Part shown: positions 1,754 to 8,224 of the stretch, in pieces
Numbering within the stretch: the first letter of the stretch is position 1
Layout of the letters: each line of letters opens with the position of its first letter
Position numbers and translations under genes: made by a program
The notes under the pieces: model-generated
What the model saw: the letters and a program-made list of their open reading frames with translations, nothing else
What the model was told of the DNA's origin: nothing
Databases searched by the model: none
Origin: Nitrososphaera viennensis EN76
GTDB taxonomy: Archaea; Thermoproteota; Nitrososphaeria; Nitrososphaerales; Nitrososphaeraceae
DNA: 32,000 bases
Reading direction: 5' to 3'
Assembly (NCBI RefSeq): GCF_000698785.1
Contig: NZ_CP007536.1
Coordinates: 60,001-92,000 of the forward strand

Positions 1754-2125
1754 CTAAACGACAATTATAGCGTGCGACGGTCGTCCAGTTTGGTCTAGGA
1801 CATCAGATTGCCAATCTGGTAACCCGGGTTCAAATCCCGGCCGTCGCACCATTCTCTCATGTAATAGGCCGGGTTGCTCGTTACTCGAAACCGTACCTGT
1901 TTTGCTATAAACCGCTACGGTTTTGCTCGCTACCGTTACTGTATGTGCAGCGCCAGCGGCGAGCGTGCTATGCGTGCTTGCCAATTTTTTTAGTTCTTTG
2001 TCGTAAAGTATGCCGCAATGTTTGCAGAAATAACCCATTGCTTCATACGTAGCTTTTGCGCCGTGTCGTTCGTAGAGCGTCTTGATTTTCTTGCCGCATT
2101 TAGGGCAGTCTTGCATGGCAGGCAT
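1754..2125 (-). CDS. zinc-ribbon protein; only the N-terminal part is likely real
   Basis: CPKC...CKHC zinc ribbon in the first 40 aa. A BRE/TATA-like aaaaaagctttatag lies just upstream. The last roughly 30 codons are antisense to tRNA-Gly/attL, so the ORF end was created by integration. Confidence 0.5.
   Translation of the reverse strand: MPAMQDCPKCGKKIKTLYERHGAKATYEAMGYFCKHCGILYDKELKKLASTHSTLAAGAAHTVTVASKTVAVYSKTGTVSSNEQPGLLHERMVRRPGFEPGLPDWQSDVLDQTGRPSHAIIVV
1774..1851 (+). tRNA. tRNA-Gly (anticodon GCC), CCA encoded
   Basis: Manual cloverleaf. Acceptor GCGACGG/CCGTCGC. D stem GTCC/GGAC. Anticodon stem TCAGA/TCTGG with loop TTGCCAA. T stem CCGGG/CCCGG with loop TTCAAAT. Discriminator A, then CCA. 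Confidence 0.93.
1814..1852. repeat. attL: 39-bp direct repeat covering the tRNA-Gly 3' half
   Basis: atctggtaacccgggttcaaatcccggccgtcgcaccat is identical to 4256..4294. Flanking bases differ on both sides. Confidence 0.88.
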
Positions 2126-2154
2126 ACCGTAGACGGTCTATAAAGCTTTTTTGC

Positions 2155-2571
2155 TCACGATTTCATTTCTTTAAGCGTGTCAATTATTTTTTGTGCAGTG
2201 ACCTTGTCGCCGCTTTTGCTCAATGAATAGAGCCTTACCTTATTTTCATTTACGCCGTCTTCTATGACGATGTTTTTGCTTACAAGCCTGTTGAAGTTGC
2301 TGCCATTGAACCAATCGCCATGTGCCTTGCCAAATTCCTTGAACATATTGGCAATCTCCGTCTTTGTTTGTTTGGGTTTCATTTTAAGACACAATACTGC
2401 CAAGTCTTGCGGCCCGATCTTTTCAATATTAGTCACTATCAACCCTTCAATGTCAAGGCCGTCAGAGGCTTCAGACAATCTCTTCTTGGTGGCTATTATC
2501 TTCTCTAGAATGCTAAGCCTCTCTTCTATTCTAGACAAGCGTTCTTCTACGTTCAATTGTAAGTCGATCAT
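2155..2571 (-). CDS. coiled-coil + winged-helix-like protein (element-borne)
   Basis: 138-aa ORF. N-terminal heptad-like EERLSRIEERLSILEKII, then an HTH-like core and a C-terminal KVRLYSLSKSGDK wing-like segment. The gap to each neighbouring ORF is 28-29 nt. Confidence 0.7.
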   Translation of the reverse strand: MIDLQLNVEERLSRIEERLSILEKIIATKKRLSEASDGLDIEGLIVTNIEKIGPQDLAVLCLKMKPKQTKTEIANMFKEFGKAHGDWFNGSNFNRLVSKNIVIEDGVNENKVRLYSLSKSGDKVTAQKIIDTLKEMKS

Positions 2572-2599
2572 AGAAAACCTTTAGATAAAAAGTTGCTGG

Positions 2600-3382
2600 C
2601 TATTGCAGTTTGCTCGACTTTTGCCATCTGTCGGTGAATTTTTGATTTAGAGCGTTCCTCAAATCTCTGCCTTTATCTCCCTTGAAGACCAAAACAAATG
2701 ATTCTCGACCGCCCAGGTCTTTTATGCCGTGACCGAGTATGATAAGAGTGTCGTCTGTTATTATATATCTATCATGAAGTTCATTTGCTCTCGGGTAACG
2801 ACCTAACAAGATGTTTGCGTGCTCTTTCTCAAAATTGGCAAGCTCGCGGCTGAATTTTTGCGCGCTTTCATTTTTTCCCAGCTGGGCAGTCAAGAACTTG
2901 ATATCTGTACCATGATCTAATTTTTCAAGCATATCAAGAGTTTTTAGACCATAATATGGGTCAAGAATTTTCATTGTACCTTTGGTTTTAGAAATTATGT
3001 CTTTCAGTGTTTGATGCGAGGTACGCGGTTTATCGCCTTCGATGTGGTATGCTTCAAGGTCGCCATTGGCGAATTTCCTGCGCAGGTCTTCGATACCTTT
3101 CGCCATAATTTTGTATGCTATTTTGCCACGAATCTTTTTTCTATGAATTTTCTTATCTGCTCTGTTGAATGCATTGGTGATCTCTCGTTCATCAAATGAT
3201 ACATCATATAACGACGCGAGAATCTCTGATATCTCTGCCGAGTTTAAGTAGCCGTTTTGATCCAGCATGTCGTTGTAGACCCACAGAACCCAGAGACCCG
3301 CGTCTTGCGCACAATCTAATTTCGTGATTTCAGGGTAACTAGAAACATCGATTTTCTTAAATTCATCGATGAGCGAAGTCAA
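2600..3382 (-). CDS. wHTH protein with C-terminal PLD-like (HDR-type) domain
   Basis: 260-aa ORF. The N-terminal half has a wHTH-like segment (LNSAEISEILASLY...KIAYKIMAKG). The C-terminal half has ILDPYYG...IKFLT...LHDRYIITDDTLIILGHGIKDLGGRESF. From memory this resembles the HxK/R-type phospholipase-D-like fold (MITD1 C-terminal type). Confidence 0.7.
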   Translation of the reverse strand: MTSLIDEFKKIDVSSYPEITKLDCAQDAGLWVLWVYNDMLDQNGYLNSAEISEILASLYDVSFDEREITNAFNRADKKIHRKKIRGKIAYKIMAKGIEDLRRKFANGDLEAYHIEGDKPRTSHQTLKDIISKTKGTMKILDPYYGLKTLDMLEKLDHGTDIKFLTAQLGKNESAQKFSRELANFEKEHANILLGRYPRANELHDRYIITDDTLIILGHGIKDLGGRESFVLVFKGDKGRDLRNALNQKFTDRWQKSSKLQ

Positions 3383-3399
3383 TATTTCAAATGCATCTC

Positions 3400-3741
3400 T
3401 TAGGTCGGCGGGTATTTTTCAACATAGTTATTGTTGCCAGTATTGGTCAGATATTTTGCTCGTTGAAGCGCCATTTCGACTGTATGCTTCTTGAAATTAT
3501 ACCGCATTGCACCCAATTTTTCAATAATAGTGTCAAGTGGTTTATTCTCTTTGAAGTAATGAGTGAGATAAAGCGCATGAATAGCTTGTGGTGCTTTTCT
3601 TATGATACGCGGTGGCTGGTGTGTCTTGCCCCCGATGCTGGCGCTCGGTTTGGTTTTGGTTAGCTCGACAGTCCCTTCGTAAGTAACGCCTTTTTCATCT
3701 GTAACCAAAATATGTATGCGCATGCTATCACCTATTGACAT
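3400..3741 (-). CDS. hypothetical small protein, possible wHTH
   Basis: 113-aa ORF overlapping the upstream gene by 14 nt (operon-like). An alternative ATG at 3723 is possible. The C-terminal part is helix-rich and HTH-like. Confidence 0.6.
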   Translation of the reverse strand: MSIGDSMRIHILVTDEKGVTYEGTVELTKTKPSASIGGKTHQPPRIIRKAPQAIHALYLTHYFKENKPLDTIIEKLGAMRYNFKKHTVEMALQRAKYLTNTGNNNYVEKYPPT

Positions 3742-4048
3742 AGGCCCATTGCCCTTCCTTCTTGATACGACCCAAAACCTTGCCCTTGATTGCTCTCGAT
3801 AGGGGTGCAGTCAAGCTTGAACTACTGTAGAAATGGCCGTCTGCTTTCATCTTTTCAACTATTTCGCCGACATTTTTGGGTTGCCCGAAGAAGCCTTCAT
3901 CTTTCATTTCAATTAGTAGGTCGGTTATAGACGGGGGTTGGTTAGCGCTCTTTTGTTTCTGCGCAGAAGCTTTCAACGACAATTCTAGTTTCTTGATTCG
4001 CTTCTCATGGCCTGCCAAAATTTTCTTTACTTCTTCTATGTCAGACAC
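3728..4048 (-). CDS. coiled-coil + winged-helix-like protein (element-borne)
   Basis: 106-aa ORF with a GTG start and a TATA-like ttattaaatagg upstream. Architecture is EKRIKKLELSL, then an HTH-like core, then a GRIKKEGQWAYVNR wing, the same as the 138-aa ORF. Confidence 0.68.
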   Translation of the reverse strand: MSDIEEVKKILAGHEKRIKKLELSLKASAQKQKSANQPPSITDLLIEMKDEGFFGQPKNVGEIVEKMKADGHFYSSSSLTAPLSRAIKGKVLGRIKKEGQWAYVNR

Positions 4049-4255
4049 CGTCTAATTCGCTTCTATAACTATTACACCTATTTAATAAGAATTTCGCGAC
4101 TATTTACAACTTCTTGCTGATATCAGAACATGAATTTTACCTGTAACGCGAAACCAGCACTATAAACTCGAACCGAATTTTTCTAGGCGGGGGGGGCATT
4201 TAATGCAAAACCTTATTCGAAAAGTCACTTGTTTTGGTCGGTTATTAGATAGTTT

Positions 4256-4294
4256 ATCTGGTAACCCGGGTTCAAATCCCGGCCGTCGCACCAT
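4256..4294. repeat. attR: displaced copy of the tRNA-Gly 3' half
   Basis: Exact 39-bp copy of 1814..1852 with no 5' tRNA half upstream of it. Confidence 0.88.
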
Positions 4295-4327
4295 CATTTT
4301 CATCATCCAAGCCGCAATCGACTTCTG

Positions 4328-4501
4328 CTAGCCGGCGCTTCCGCACGCGCAGAACCCAAACTCGTCGATGCGCTTGCCGCACGTCGGGCACTTTTCGCCG
4401 TACTCTACTTCCCACGCGCGCTTGCCGTACAGCTTGAAGTGGTCGTCGTCTTCCTCCGAGAACTCTTCTTCTTTCTTCTTTTTCTTTTCTTCTTCAGCCA
4501 T
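4328..4501 (-). CDS. 57-aa zinc-ribbon protein with a charged N-terminal tail (below the track threshold)
   Basis: Hand translation gives MAEEEKKKKKEEEFSEEDDDHFKLYGKRAWEVEYGEKCPTCGKRIDEFGFCACGSAG*. CPTC...CAC metal site. The ATG overlaps the stop region of 4494..4955 by 8 nt. Confidence 0.55.
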   Translation of the reverse strand: MAEEEKKKKKEEEFSEEDDDHFKLYGKRAWEVEYGEKCPTCGKRIDEFGFCACGSAG

Positions 4502-4955: not shown

Positions 4956-5193
4956 GCAGGTACCTTTGCAGGCACAAAATAAGAGCTTTGTTATGGCGAT
5001 AAACGGCCCAAGTTATCCAGTTTTTACGTCATTGGACGACGACGAAGCTCACTATAGAAAGTATGTGCGCATGCATTCTTTTTTGGAAAAGAGAGGAAAC
5101 GAAAAAAGCCAAGCAGATGCTTCCGCCGCGGTGTTTGGCTCCTATTCATCGTTATTCAGCGGCATGATGGAAATGTAAAAAGGTGGATTATAA

Positions 5194-5670
5194 TTAGTCG
5201 CGTTTGTCCCCTGTTGTTCTTTTCTTCTTTATTGCCCGCAGCTTCCTTATTCCAAAAATGGACGCTACAAACGCTATCCCTGAACCTGCCAGTATCTCCA
5301 CAACAAATGGGCTAAGCTCTGGCTGTGATGCTACGCTGCTAGATGATCCACACGGTGAGCCTACTGCTCCAAGGCAGCGGTGTTTCAATATTTCATTTTC
5401 AGAGCATTTTTCTGGCGATATGCCCAGCTCTTTGCATTCCTGAAGCATCTGCTGAGTTGGCGGAGATGGACTTTGGCTTGTCTGCGCGTATGCATGCTCG
5501 CTATTTGTGAAAAAGGCCAAAGAGGAAAACGACATGATGCCTGCCATTACTGCTGCAATAAAGCCCGCTGCAAGCCTTCTCCTTCTCTTTGCCAACAGCA
5601 GGAAATAGGAAATTCTTCTATTTTTCCTTTCAGACGTGCCTTCAAAAAAGCGGCACAAGTTTACGAACAA
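5194..5670 (-). CDS. small Cys-containing secreted protein with a C-terminal membrane anchor
   Basis: Signal-like KRRRRLAAGFIAAVMAGIMSFSSLAFF..AYA. The real start is probably TTG at 5595, 20 nt after aaaaatagaa. Six Cys in the mature part. C-terminal hydrophobic segment ILAGSGIAFVASIFGI followed by RKLRAIKKKR. Confidence 0.6.
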   Translation of the reverse strand: MFVNLCRFFEGTSERKNRRISYFLLLAKRRRRLAAGFIAAVMAGIMSFSSLAFFTNSEHAYAQTSQSPSPPTQQMLQECKELGISPEKCSENEILKHRCLGAVGSPCGSSSSVASQPELSPFVVEILAGSGIAFVASIFGIRKLRAIKKKRTTGDKRD

Positions 5671-5835
5671 AAAGGGGATTCCCTTTTTACTCCTTGTCGC
5701 TGAACTCGTTTGGATCCGACGGCCAAACCATTCTTTTTCCCCTATTTCCGGATGACAAACAGTTTTTGACAGAATTTAGGACCTACAAAATAATAGGAGT
5801 TTAGCGCCACGCGGGCGCGAAAAAAGCAGAGGAGT

Positions 5836-7464
5836 CTAGCAGATGCGTATGGACTTGGCCAGCATCAGGGCACGCTGCGAGTCGTCTTCCATCATCTCGT
5901 TGTTCTTGTACTTGTTGCTAAAGTAGATGAGGTCTATCATCTTGCAGCGGTCCATAGTCACGACTGCGCTCCCGTTGGTGCCTGCAGTCGTGTTGGCGTT
6001 TGTCAGTATCACCAGCTTGTCCACAAAGCCCGTCGTCTTTAGCGTGTTTGAGATCTGCTCAAAGCTCTTGGCGTGGTCGCGGTTTATCACGACTGTTATT
6101 GCCACCTTTGTGCCGTACGGGTCGGAGAACATGATGTCTACCCCGCTCCCGTTGCTCTTTTGCGGTTTTGCCACCGCGCCCACTTCGTGCGCATAGTTCA
6201 CGAGGTTGCGCACGGCGTCCTTTACTCCCGATTCGAGCACAGAGACGTCGCTTGTGCTCCTGCGGATCTTGATAAAGTCGGAAATCGGCACGTCCATGAC
6301 GCTCCCGCGTATGCGCAGGCCGGGGTAGACATTTTTGATAGTTTCATCAATGGCCTGCTCGTCTATTATCGGCGCCTCGCGCTTGCCGGCGTTTTCAGTG
6401 GCGTGGTACATTATGTTCAGCATCGAGCGCACGTTGCGAAAGTCCGGGAACTCGTCATAGATCACCTTCACCTTTGCCGCAAGGTCGCGCTCTTCGTCGT
6501 CGGTAAAGCACTTGCCTGCGTCGTGGAAGCGTATGTACTCCATGATGATGTCGAGGATCTCCTCGTAGGTGTTCGAGCCTGCAAGGTCGACCTTGTAGTT
6601 GGCCTTTTCCAGCCTGTCAAACACGGACGCATTTGCCTTGCTGATGTCGTCGTACGATGACGGGGTGAATATCAGCAGGAGCGCTGCCGCCGGCACGTGG
6701 GCGTTTATCACAGCCTTGACAAACTCGGTCGTCTCCCTGTCGGCGTCAAACTCGTCCAGCTGGAACACGGTCACGCGCCCAAGAAAGCGCAGGTTCAAAG
6801 ACGCAAGGGCCGCCAGGCTTGCGATGATGTCTTCAAGGGTCGAGACGTTTGCCGCGTCAGCCCTGAACTTGCCCTCCACCACCAGTTTCAGTATCGCGAC
6901 CTCGATTGGCGAAAACTCCCTGCTCAATGTCTCGGAAAGCGCGGAATAGTTGGGCACAAGCTCGTTGTTCAGCAAGAGCTCTGCCTTGTCTGACAGGCGC
7001 TTGCCGGTGATAGAGTCCATGAACCCATAGTTGAACACCTTGCGCGCAGTTGACGACTGCTCGGCCTTGGCAAGCAGGTGCTTGACAACAGCCCTGCGCA
7101 TCTGGGCGATGTACTCGTCGGTGAAGCCGCCCAGCATCGCAGAGTAGAGGCTGTGCATGTTGCGCGGGGATATCTGCGTCAGGTCGACGTACGATATCAC
7201 GGTCCTGTCCTCGACCTCCTTGAGCCCCTTTATGTGGAGCGCAAGGTGCGTCTTGCCTGAACCCACGTCCTGGATTATCGTGAGAAGCCTAAAGTCCTTG
7301 TCGGTGGCCTTGCCTTCGGCGACCTTGCCGTGCAGGTCGGAAAAGCACGCAAGCACAGCCGCCTTGGCCTCCTTGTGGCGCTTGCCTCCAAGGATCTTGG
7401 CGTCAATCAAAGTCGGGGTCGGGCTGCTTGGGTATGGGTTTCTGTCCAGCCTGTACGGATACAT
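5836..7464 (-). CDS. P-loop NTPase with an uncharacterised C-terminal domain
   Basis: 542-aa ORF. Walker A QDVGSGKTH, Walker B VTVFQLDEFD. The C-terminal roughly 110 aa (GSGVDIMFSDPYGTKVAITVVI...LVILTNAN) loosely resembles an Mrr-like nuclease core, but I see no clear catalytic Lys. Confidence 0.85.
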   Translation of the reverse strand: MYPYRLDRNPYPSSPTPTLIDAKILGGKRHKEAKAAVLACFSDLHGKVAEGKATDKDFRLLTIIQDVGSGKTHLALHIKGLKEVEDRTVISYVDLTQISPRNMHSLYSAMLGGFTDEYIAQMRRAVVKHLLAKAEQSSTARKVFNYGFMDSITGKRLSDKAELLLNNELVPNYSALSETLSREFSPIEVAILKLVVEGKFRADAANVSTLEDIIASLAALASLNLRFLGRVTVFQLDEFDADRETTEFVKAVINAHVPAAALLLIFTPSSYDDISKANASVFDRLEKANYKVDLAGSNTYEEILDIIMEYIRFHDAGKCFTDDEERDLAAKVKVIYDEFPDFRNVRSMLNIMYHATENAGKREAPIIDEQAIDETIKNVYPGLRIRGSVMDVPISDFIKIRRSTSDVSVLESGVKDAVRNLVNYAHEVGAVAKPQKSNGSGVDIMFSDPYGTKVAITVVINRDHAKSFEQISNTLKTTGFVDKLVILTNANTTAGTNGSAVVTMDRCKMIDLIYFSNKYKNNEMMEDDSQRALMLAKSIRIC

Positions 7465-7470
7465 ATCTCG

Positions 7471-8106
7471 CTAGATGCACCTCACAAAGCCGTGCAGGAG
7501 GCCGCGCACCATCACGCCCTCGCCCCCGCCGGTAGAAAGCTCGTACTTGTCCTGGTACTGGCCCGTCAGTTCGCCTACCAGGCGGTAGAAATCGTCACCT
7601 GTGATTCCACACTTGCCGCAAACGTCGCTTCGCACCTTGGCAAGCTCGACCCAGCCAATCGAAGACGCCGAGTTTGCAAGCGCGCTGTCAAACTCTTTCT
7701 TGAAGTCGCCGACGCTAATGCTCCTTGCAGGCGCGGCAGATGCCGGCACGCTTCTGGCCTCAGCTCGTTCAGTAACGAGCCTTGCCAGGTTGGATATGTT
7801 GCCTGCAAGTGCCTCCACCGCGCGGGAAACCTCGCGGTTTGATGCGCTCACGGTCTCTTCAAGGGACTTTATCAGGTCGTACGTCAGCCTGAACCTCGGG
7901 TCGGTATTGAGAAGGCTCTGGACGTAATGGTCCTTGTGGAAGCAATAGTAGGCGCTTGCGCGCTTGTCCACGAAAACCTGCCCCTTGCTTACGAGGCTTT
8001 CCAGTGCGGCGTCGATCTCGCCAAACTCCTTGCGAAGATCGGCCTTTTTGGCACCGGCCGACCCCGCAGAAAGGATCCTTTTCTCCAGCTTTTCCTCTGC
8101 GGTCAT
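7471..8106 (-). CDS. wHTH / coiled-coil protein, operon partner of the NTPase
   Basis: 211-aa ORF ending 6 nt before the NTPase start. N-terminal wHTH-like KADLRKEFGEIDAALESLVSKGQVFV. The promoter tttaaataataa ends 17 nt upstream of the ATG. Confidence 0.8.
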   Translation of the reverse strand: MTAEEKLEKRILSAGSAGAKKADLRKEFGEIDAALESLVSKGQVFVDKRASAYYCFHKDHYVQSLLNTDPRFRLTYDLIKSLEETVSASNREVSRAVEALAGNISNLARLVTERAEARSVPASAAPARSISVGDFKKEFDSALANSASSIGWVELAKVRSDVCGKCGITGDDFYRLVGELTGQYQDKYELSTGGGEGVMVRGLLHGFVRCI

Positions 8107-8224
8107 GAGGTAGAAGTTCGAAATTATTATTTAAACCAGAAAGCGACGATTCGCTGCATTGTGGGTAAACAAAGTTACACAAGTGACGAATAACGGTTAA
8201 TATTGCGCGCCGCCCGCACTTGAG

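Follow-up and report, generated by a model that had tools for sequence, protein, structure and literature searches.

A likely remnant of a mobile element with a split SSV1-type integrase, and its stranded cargo, in tRNA-Gly(GCC) of Nitrososphaera viennensis EN76

How does a 2.4-kb stretch of DNA without a catalytic recombinase come to lie between two perfect copies of the 3' half of a tRNA gene, and what does it carry? We consider this question for the archaeon Nitrososphaera viennensis EN76, in a stretch of 32,000 nucleotides (nt) of its genome (contig NZ_CP007536.1, positions 60,001 to 92,000) that we call the window and number from its first letter. A first-pass annotation of the window had described an element in tRNA-Gly(GCC) that was either the "decayed rump of a larger element" or a minimal cargo cassette mobilised in trans. 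Comparison with two full-length relatives, L172 and L173, favours the former, and we consider it likely that a larger mobile element split its own integrase gene on integrating and then lost the catalytic half of it, the insert being its remnant with a stranded cargo of four genes.

The window holds a single tRNA gene, tRNA-Gly(GCC) at 1774-1851 on the plus strand (ARAGORN; Rfam RF00005, 64.9 bits), an intact host gene that served as the integration target and that is 100% identical in the related loci L175 and L178. Its 3' portion, starting at the last base of the anticodon loop and ending 1 nt past CCA, forms the 39-bp attL core (1814-1852, plus strand), and the attR core at 4256-4294 on the same strand, the displaced original 3' half, is an exact copy of it. 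This 39-mer, ATCTGGTAACCCGGGTTCAAATCCCGGCCGTCGCACCAT, comprises the last 38 bases of the tRNA and one further nucleotide; it is present in exactly two copies in the window, and 100 shuffles gave no match with 3 mismatches tolerated. The DNA between the cores (1853-4255) has a GC content of 0.418 as compared to 0.554 in the left flank and 0.541 in the entire window, so the AT-richness remarked on in the first-pass annotation is real. In two related loci, L175 and L177, the site is empty: the tRNA is followed directly by the equivalent of 4295-4324, the right flank of attR, and then by orthologues of genes for proteins of 57 and 153 amino acids (aa). Such a site was what the annotation had proposed to seek in relatives, and together with ARAGORN and the exact repeat it bears out the proposed tRNA-Gly(GCC) insertion with a perfect 39-bp repeat. 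Direct repeats derived from a tRNA and an empty site in relatives are both expected of SSV-type elements.

One might instead suppose that no mobile element was ever involved, and that the repeat is what a tandem duplication of the tRNA gene left behind, around ordinary host genes. The similarity of the two copies does run on for 12 nt past the perfect core, within the anticodon arm (51 nt at 90%), as such a relic would allow. The second copy, however, lacks the 5' half and is called as a tRNA by neither ARAGORN nor Rfam, the right-hand flank directly follows the tRNA in the relative, the GC content falls by ~13 points, and half of an integrase runs across the junction. We regard a duplication relic as next to impossible, and rejected it on the empty site and on the homology of this integrase half, described below. 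A further candidate, that ~2.46-kb Logan contigs consisting of the element alone represent its circular form, was also discarded: their size equals 2,403 bp plus two 30-nt overlaps, as expected from a k=31 graph at a 39-bp repeat.

The element carries five minus-strand open reading frames (ORFs) head to tail, A to E, and a non-coding stretch at 4049-4255, just as the first-pass annotation had listed. None of the five rises above threshold in Pfam, PHROGs or NCBIfam, and none matches an integrase family there, so that the intact integrase gene separate from attP that marks pNOB8-type (type II) elements was not found among them. Our argument turns on ORF E (1754-2125, minus strand, 123 aa). Its codons 1-43 encode a CxxC...CxxC Zn ribbon; a variable linker follows, then the att core, which is read antisense and in frame as codons 92-104 (MVRRPGFEPGLPD), and finally a tail of antisense tRNA. 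Over 38-40 aa, ORF E is 70-76% identical to the N-termini of the integrases (353-355 aa) that can be reconstituted from L172 and L173. To our knowledge a CxxC...CxxC zinc ribbon has not been described in the N-terminal part of the SSV1 integrase.

L172, a 9,762-bp Logan contig, is the closest relative of the cluster, with the gene order A-B-C-D-E of the window and with P0002, the nearest relative of protein C (79% identical). Its E homologue leaves the contig end in antisense tRNA sequence; both ends lie within tRNA-Pro-like sequence and overlap by 13 nt. When the ends are joined, a continuous ORF of 355 aa results, made up of an E-like Zn ribbon, a linker, an att-coded segment and a catalytic domain with matches both to Pfam PF16795 ("Archaeal phage integrase"; 34.7 bits against a cut-off of 27) and to the SSV1 integrase catalytic-domain structures 3UXU, 3VCF and 4DKS. 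From the two 30-nt ends of L172 an att core of 47 nt is predicted, reaching from the anticodon loop to the 3' end of tRNA-Pro(TGG). L173, a JGI contig, contains a 9,265-bp insert in tRNA-Pro(TGG) between perfect 47-bp direct repeats identical to this predicted core. In L173 the C-terminal half of the integrase, Int(C) (304 aa), starts at one att copy, and the N-terminal half, Int(N) (103 aa), enters the tRNA at the other; virtual excision yields an ORF of 353 aa that is 91% identical to the L172 integrase.

This arrangement is that of the SSV-type "suicidal" integrases, whose split-gene mechanism has been described (PMC7253208). In SSV1, in the pT26-2 family (PMC7253208) and in NitEve-E3 of Ca. 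Nitrososphaera evergladensis, where an SSV1-like split integrase has already been reported (PMC6563490), attP lies within the integrase ORF and insertion into the 3' half of a tRNA splits int(N) from int(C), and the same would hold for the element in the window. As in these systems, an int(N) fragment reads outward through the att core, here ORF E. The integrase family in databases consists mostly of fragments of 200-300 aa, several of which start in translated antisense tRNA, and E-like Zn-ribbon fragments (73-138 aa) carry antisense tails from at least five different other tRNAs. A long att core (39-47 bp) translated in the protein, variable target tRNAs and halves stranded in host genomes are all shared with SSV-type elements. 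Given the L172 and L173 integrases, the family fragments and the known behaviour of SSV-type elements, ORF E is, by homology, the Int(N) half of an SSV1-type "suicidal" integrase. The first-pass annotation was right to call the element "integrase-less" insofar as no catalytic recombinase is present, and its guesses at domains were mostly sound (winged helix and PLD in C, winged-helix-like A and B, zinc ribbon in E); what it missed was that E runs in frame through att, and that this Zn-ribbon ORF is half of an integrase.

We note several other traces of the family. P0342 (AIF84172.1, NTE_02117) of Ca. Nitrososphaera evergladensis SR1 is an SSV1-type Int(C), and its cluster representative P0101 (235 aa) is 79% identical to the L172 integrase. 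P0342 lies outside NitEve-E3, whose genes begin at NTE.02528, and may mark another uncatalogued split-integrase element. P0074 (314 aa, on a 1,965-bp JGI contig) begins in antisense tRNA, continues as the N-terminal part of an integrase and ends in the PLD domain of a C homologue, and looks like an independent deletion derivative that fused integrase directly to cargo.

The catalytic partner of ORF E is missing from the window. In an SSV-type element an int(C) with a PF16795 domain would enter from attR; here, the ORF that does so ends after 31 codons. The stretch beside attR, where Int(C) should begin, is non-coding. Int(C) was not found anywhere in the 32 kb by tblastn or with a hidden Markov model (HMM) profile of 73 family members; a relic of it beside attR gave no signal with the profile HMM in all frames or in Smith-Waterman comparisons against shuffles; and virtual excision of the window element produces only 135 aa and does not restore a full-length integrase ORF. 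Because no int(C) enters from attR, we class the element as a remnant and not as an intact SSV-type member. Two att sites without an encoded recombinase are what is found in non-autonomous att-flanked elements, i.e., cis-mobilizable elements (CIMEs) or satellites. Unlike SSV-type elements, the window element keeps int(N) only, with int(C) and all core genes lost, its host is a mesophilic soil ammonia oxidiser, and the surviving half looks selectively maintained.

How much may have been lost can be gauged from L172. From its att to the region upstream of A, L172 has an interval of ~7.2 kb, as compared to 143 bp (4113-4255) in the window; in L172 it contains Int(C), the gene of a 334-aa protein, genes for several small winged-helix proteins and 1.5 kb of non-coding DNA. 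The 334-aa protein is capsid-like and conserved in L173 and L178, with no relative among GenBank phages. We propose that an element with an SSV1-type (type I, "suicidal") tyrosine integrase entered the 3' half of tRNA-Gly(GCC) in N. viennensis EN76. With attP inside the integrase gene, integration would have split that gene, Int(N) reading out across attL and Int(C) in from attR. Int(N) would have been kept as ORF E, with Int(C) and ~7 kb of element genes deleted; besides Int(N), there would then remain the attR core with its arm of 143 bp and ~2 kb of cassette, comprising the promoter and genes A to D. Self-excision would have been lost with the catalytic half, and the cargo would therefore have been captured.

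When might this have happened? The host gene upstream (206 aa) is conserved across Nitrososphaera, and four states of the locus were recovered, that of the window included. L178 represents the sister lineage. Its homology to the window spans the tRNA and the entire Int(N) up to 2151 (91.2% nt identity in the element part) and resumes at the attR arm. This arm, the element's "P arm", occupies 4113-4255 in the window; it is non-coding, its first 12 nt continue the tRNA-like sequence, and it is homologous to L178 10187-10264 (83% over 78 bp, the alignment going on to ~4125). The cargo of L178 differs from that of the window: it encodes proteins of 104 and 172 aa, and the 172-aa protein is related to one of the cargo genes in L173. 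The L178 attR core ends after 10 nt (ATCTGGTAAC). Beyond it, L178 10265-16621 carries genes of the same element family, for a 332-aa homologue of the L172 334-aa protein and then for proteins of 172, 83 and 599 aa; the cut core and the genes that follow suggest a rearrangement or a second insertion at att. The remaining state is that of L174, whose host flank is 100% identical to that of L175 over 8.6 kb and whose contents differ. A large element (L174 8646-16621) replaces the tRNA region there, starting 29 bp before the tRNA position, and ARAGORN calls no tRNA in L174; the first protein of this element (436 aa) has tyrosine-recombinase-like motifs and a C-terminal coiled coil, and RadA, PCNA and DUF87 genes are also present.

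The first-pass annotation had argued from the perfect att identity against great age, and this the comparison contradicts. From the host flanks, with identities of 90-91% vs 86-88%, the lineages group as ((N. viennensis, L178), L175), and the identities of Int(N) (91%) and of the arm (83% nt) between window and L178 are comparable with the 90-91% of the host flanks. Between the same two lineages the proportion of synonymous differences (pS) is 0.26 for Int(N) and 0.34 for the host gene, and the ratio of nonsynonymous to synonymous proportions (pN/pS) is 0.16 for Int(N), 0.06 for its Zn ribbon and 0.09 for the host gene. Since Int(N) and the attR arm, though not the cargo, are shared with the sister lineage and have diverged as far as the hosts have, the capture is probably old despite its perfect repeat. 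The simplest reading of these sequences, and the most likely one, is that a single integration and a single deletion of Int(C) preceded the parting of N. viennensis from the L178 lineage, the cargo being replaced afterwards.

Several points weigh against a captured and decaying remnant. The attR core is identical to the tRNA copy at 39/39 positions, where ~3 changes would be expected from the 17% divergence of the arm (estimated P(0) ~0.04); the identity could be due to gene conversion templated by the tRNA copy, to selection or to some site-specific event at a later time. Purifying selection on Int(N), at the pN/pS given above, is unexpected for a dead gene half. Of Int(C) no trace is detectable beside attR, and a deletion flush with the att arm is an assumption on our part. 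The cargo differs between the two lineages, and its exchange may have proceeded by recombination with an incoming relative that shared the flanks, in line with a published model of hybrid formation (PMC7253208). A helper integrase in N. viennensis was judged only from the 73 matches to the family, none of which comes from N. viennensis.

Since the perfect attR core, the selection on Int(N) and the exchange of cargo do not fit a captured remnant, we keep a second reading alive, namely that the insert is a living non-autonomous mini-element, a CIME-like satellite moved by the integrase of a related full-length element, with its cargo swapped on the way. Each of the three observations would suit it, the third in that identical end sequences enclose different cargo in N. 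viennensis and in L178. Integrases with this target do exist, as P0294, of a different Int(N) type, reads into tRNA-Gly, and the locus is an integration hot spot, as the identical flanks and different contents of L174 and L175 illustrate. We nevertheless consider a living mini-element unlikely: 0 of the 73 integrase-family homologues are from N. viennensis, the catalogue of N. viennensis elements has no tRNA-Gly-targeting entry, the divergence of the ends equals that of the hosts and the host tree fits a single ancestral insertion, and the L178 copy, its attR core cut short, is certainly dead. The catalogue in question lists six N. viennensis elements, NitVie-E1 to E5 and Nvie-Pro1, none in tRNA-Gly (PMC6563490, Table S2). 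That 2019 survey of Thaumarchaeota sought integrases, signature genes and ORFan islands (PMC6563490), which is why the tRNA-Gly element escaped it.

CIMEs of Firmicutes offer a close parallel to the element in the window, being att-flanked, without a recombination module and derived by deletion from larger integrative conjugative elements. They differ in that the parent integrase is unsplit and that their mobilisation by accretion has been shown experimentally; the window element is known from sequence only.

The captured remnant is a mosaic. At the DNA level L172 is similar, at ~76%, in C and D (2180-3377), in the beginning of A together with the 64 bp ahead of it (3977-4112) and in the Zn ribbon (1990-2093), and everything up to 2151 as well as 4113-4255 is L178-like, with 2180-3377 and 3977-4112 L172-like. 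The window accordingly consists of three parts: L178-like ends, an L172-like cassette from promoter to stop codon (~2152-4112) and host DNA outside. The conserved region upstream of A (4049-4112, minus strand), with an AT-rich TTCTTATTAAATA box, is, together with the start of A, 77% identical to L172 7264-7400, and is probably the promoter of the cassette, judging from this conservation. The P arm weakly resembles a non-coding motif that is present in L172 and L173. This motif (TTAAAT-N-CCCCCC...CCTA-N-AAAATTC and then ...AAATTTTATGTTTGAGCACAA...) is found ahead of the cargo region in L172 (6587-6617) and L173 (16745-16797 and 17361-17413, flanking a gene for 95 aa); it occurs once in the attR arm of the window (~4107-4208) and once in that of L178, and might serve as promoter, as origin or as a flank for recombination when cargo is exchanged.

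What, then, is the cargo? It consists of four ORFs on the minus strand. ORF A (3728-4048, 106 aa), the first gene of the cassette, encodes a coiled coil and a winged helix and is 45% identical to its L172 counterpart. ORF B (3400-3741, 113 aa) has a small beta-rich N-terminus and a winged-helix-like C-terminus; it had no match in a profile search of the PDB or in Pfam, and shares its C-terminal domain with A (hhalign 97.3%, E 2e-11, B vs family A). ORF C (2600-3382, 260 aa) combines an N-terminal winged helix with a C-terminal PLD-fold domain. ORF D (2155-2571, 138 aa), the last gene of the cassette, again encodes a coiled coil and a winged helix and is 74% identical to the L172 protein; it also resembles the gene that follows the C homologue in a Nitrosopumilus metagenome-assembled genome (25% identity, E 2e-7). 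A gene D after C is found only in Thaumarchaeota (L021, L171 and L172). Since the slot adjoining Int(N) in L173 holds genes unrelated to A-D, the cassette is, from these comparisons, best described as accessory cargo of ~2 kb, in a slot whose content varies among related elements.

The core of the cassette is far more widespread than the element. At least 99 homologues of protein C, about 260 aa in length, were found; in 64 genome loci these belong to Planctomycetota, Verrucomicrobiota, Chloroflexota, Acidobacteriota, Nitrospirota and others, and Methanosarcinales, Methanomassiliicoccales, Micrarchaeota and Heimdallarchaeota are also represented. A homologue of A is detected by BLASTP in ~30 of the 64 loci, upstream of C and on the same strand in those mapped, often with a homologue of B in between, and B homologues sit between A and C in bacterial loci too; many other C loci have two unlabelled ORFs of 130-165 aa in the positions of A and B. 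None of the neighbours of A-B-C is conserved, a minority being restriction-modification or other defence genes. The notion that A-B-C is a tRNA-targeting element in its own right was rejected, as only 5 of 61 loci have a tRNA within 3 kb. Because its neighbours vary and tRNAs are rarely near, A-B-C is, judged from its genomic contexts, a self-contained, horizontally spread module. Metagenome scans with the single protein C returned nothing, those with the alignment only distant relatives (30-41% identity), and the patterns used revealed no relatives of C in IMG/VR. Two further contexts are of note: at L171 4145-6149 an A-B-C-D cassette begins 13 bp past the Pop5 (RNase P) stop codon and has no tRNA in its vicinity, and on the P0007 contig the A-B-C cluster has as its neighbour a DNA polymerase B of the protein-primed type (weak PF03175). 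Split-integrase elements are therefore not the only setting of the cassette.

Protein C gives the best clue to what the module may do. Its AlphaFold2 model is confident (pLDDT 94.7) and shows a winged helix and a PLD fold; Foldseek places the chromatin protein TrmBL2 first (5bpd, 1.8e-10), followed by Nuc (1byr, 4.8e-8) and MITD1 (2ymb, 4.3e-6), with NucT, PLD3 and Zucchini also among the matches. The likeness to TrmB is one of fold and architecture only, with no Pfam match at threshold to TrmB (PF01978), TrmB_C or PLDc; one C homologue carries Pfam PF16565, MIT_C. Like TrmB/TrmBL2 and the PLD-fold proteins Nuc and the MITD1 C-terminal domain, C has a winged helix and then a PLD-like fold, and unlike them it travels with two small winged-helix partners. 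H203-D204-R205-Y206, G217 and E227 are invariant in the alignment of C, and K221 and D222 nearly so. The resulting motif, H-D-R-Y...G-H-G-I-K-D, departs from the HKD motif of PLD proteins, HxK(x)4D(x)6GSxN, also given as HxK(x)4D(x)6G(S/T)xN: G217 is correctly spaced, R205 stands where the motif has its lysine, and H and I are found in place of S and N. Catalysis by C, as modelled, is uncertain despite the HKD-like spacing, because arginine stands for the HKD lysine.

Could the five genes nevertheless constitute an autonomous element that uses a novel recombination or replication enzyme, such as the PLD-fold protein C, in place of a tyrosine integrase? PLD-fold nucleases do use a covalent histidine intermediate. 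A comparable case is NitUzo-E2, which at 2.6 kb is the smallest cryptic integrated element in the thaumarchaeal catalogue (PMC6563490). Like the window element it is small and lies in a tRNA gene, and it encodes an arCOG12645 protein and then a TrmB-like winged-helix gene in the position of D, so that C and a D-like gene stand beside the integrase in an element without a recognised replication protein. P0036 of Ca. Nitrosotenuis uzonensis is a homologue of C and may be the NitUzo-E2 gene. What sets NitUzo-E2 apart from the window element is its intact integrase of XerC/D type and the absence of A, B and the Zn-ribbon Int(N). The same cassette occurs, moreover, inside a 9.8-kb element with its own complete integrase, bacterial A-B-C clusters are rarely near tRNAs and are not constant in their neighbours, the lysine of the HxK is changed to arginine in C, and the sister element has the same ends with unrelated cargo. 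We therefore give an autonomous five-gene element very little credence, and return to the cassette as the cargo of a captured remnant.

For the function of this cargo we can offer only a guess, held with low confidence, that it is a DNA-directed defence or regulatory module acting through the winged-helix/PLD protein C. The first-pass annotation, too, had guessed at a compact defence or addiction module, and the one pointer that way is a partial match: residues 93-231 of C match positions 153-285 of 306 in PDC-S05, a candidate defence gene of PADLOC (two profiles, E 2.4e-14 and 8.7e-12). The match falls short of full length: what C shares with PDC-S05 is the PLD-like half, as only the C-terminal ~130 of ~300 profile positions are matched, and PDC-S05 is a single-gene candidate as compared to the three or four genes of the window module. 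One PDC-S05 representative reduced plating of T7, T5 and T4 and protected E. coli (preprint 10.1101/2024.09.26.614923); the tested representative was described as a RhuM-domain protein (10.1101/2024.09.26.614923), and the presence of a C-like domain in it is unconfirmed. Somewhat more boldly, we speculate that A-B-C, with D in Thaumarchaeota, is an undescribed and widely transferred three-gene system for defence or exclusion, occupying a swappable slot of archaeal split-integrase elements, and that the Zn ribbon of Int(N) is selected as a stand-alone DNA-binding protein, though we regard the combination as doubtful. In such a system C, TrmBL2-like in its winged helix and PLD fold and marked by the invariant signature HDRY...G...KD...E, would be joined by two small winged-helix proteins that are paralogues of each other.

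The DNA to the right of attR deserves brief mention. The 57-aa protein encoded at 4328-4501, a small zinc-finger protein, is conserved in relatives; a conserved Nitrososphaera Zn-finger gene is reported as the integration target of NitEve-E2 (PMC6563490). To the right of the conserved 57-aa and 153-aa pair, homology to L175 ends at 4991, and 4992-8200 holds genes without counterpart in L175 and L178, whose products are a membrane protein of 158 aa, a P-loop protein of 542 aa (GSGKTH, with a weak match to AAA_22) and a protein of 211 aa. These genes may form a second island, specific to the strain, next to the one in tRNA-Gly.

The mechanism invoked here, capture through a split integrase, is already known; it is this instance that is uncatalogued, and its cargo module that is unnamed in the libraries. 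The best-studied ammonia-oxidising archaeon of soils thereby gains an integrated element that the catalogue lacks, and our analysis suggests that split SSV1-type integrases, studied mostly in hyperthermophiles, leave captured cargo in mesophilic Nitrososphaera as well. A single tRNA-Gly locus is found in four different states among closely related lineages. Finally, A-B-C represents a compact module spread across many bacterial and archaeal phyla and named in no library, and as such is a tractable candidate for functional work.

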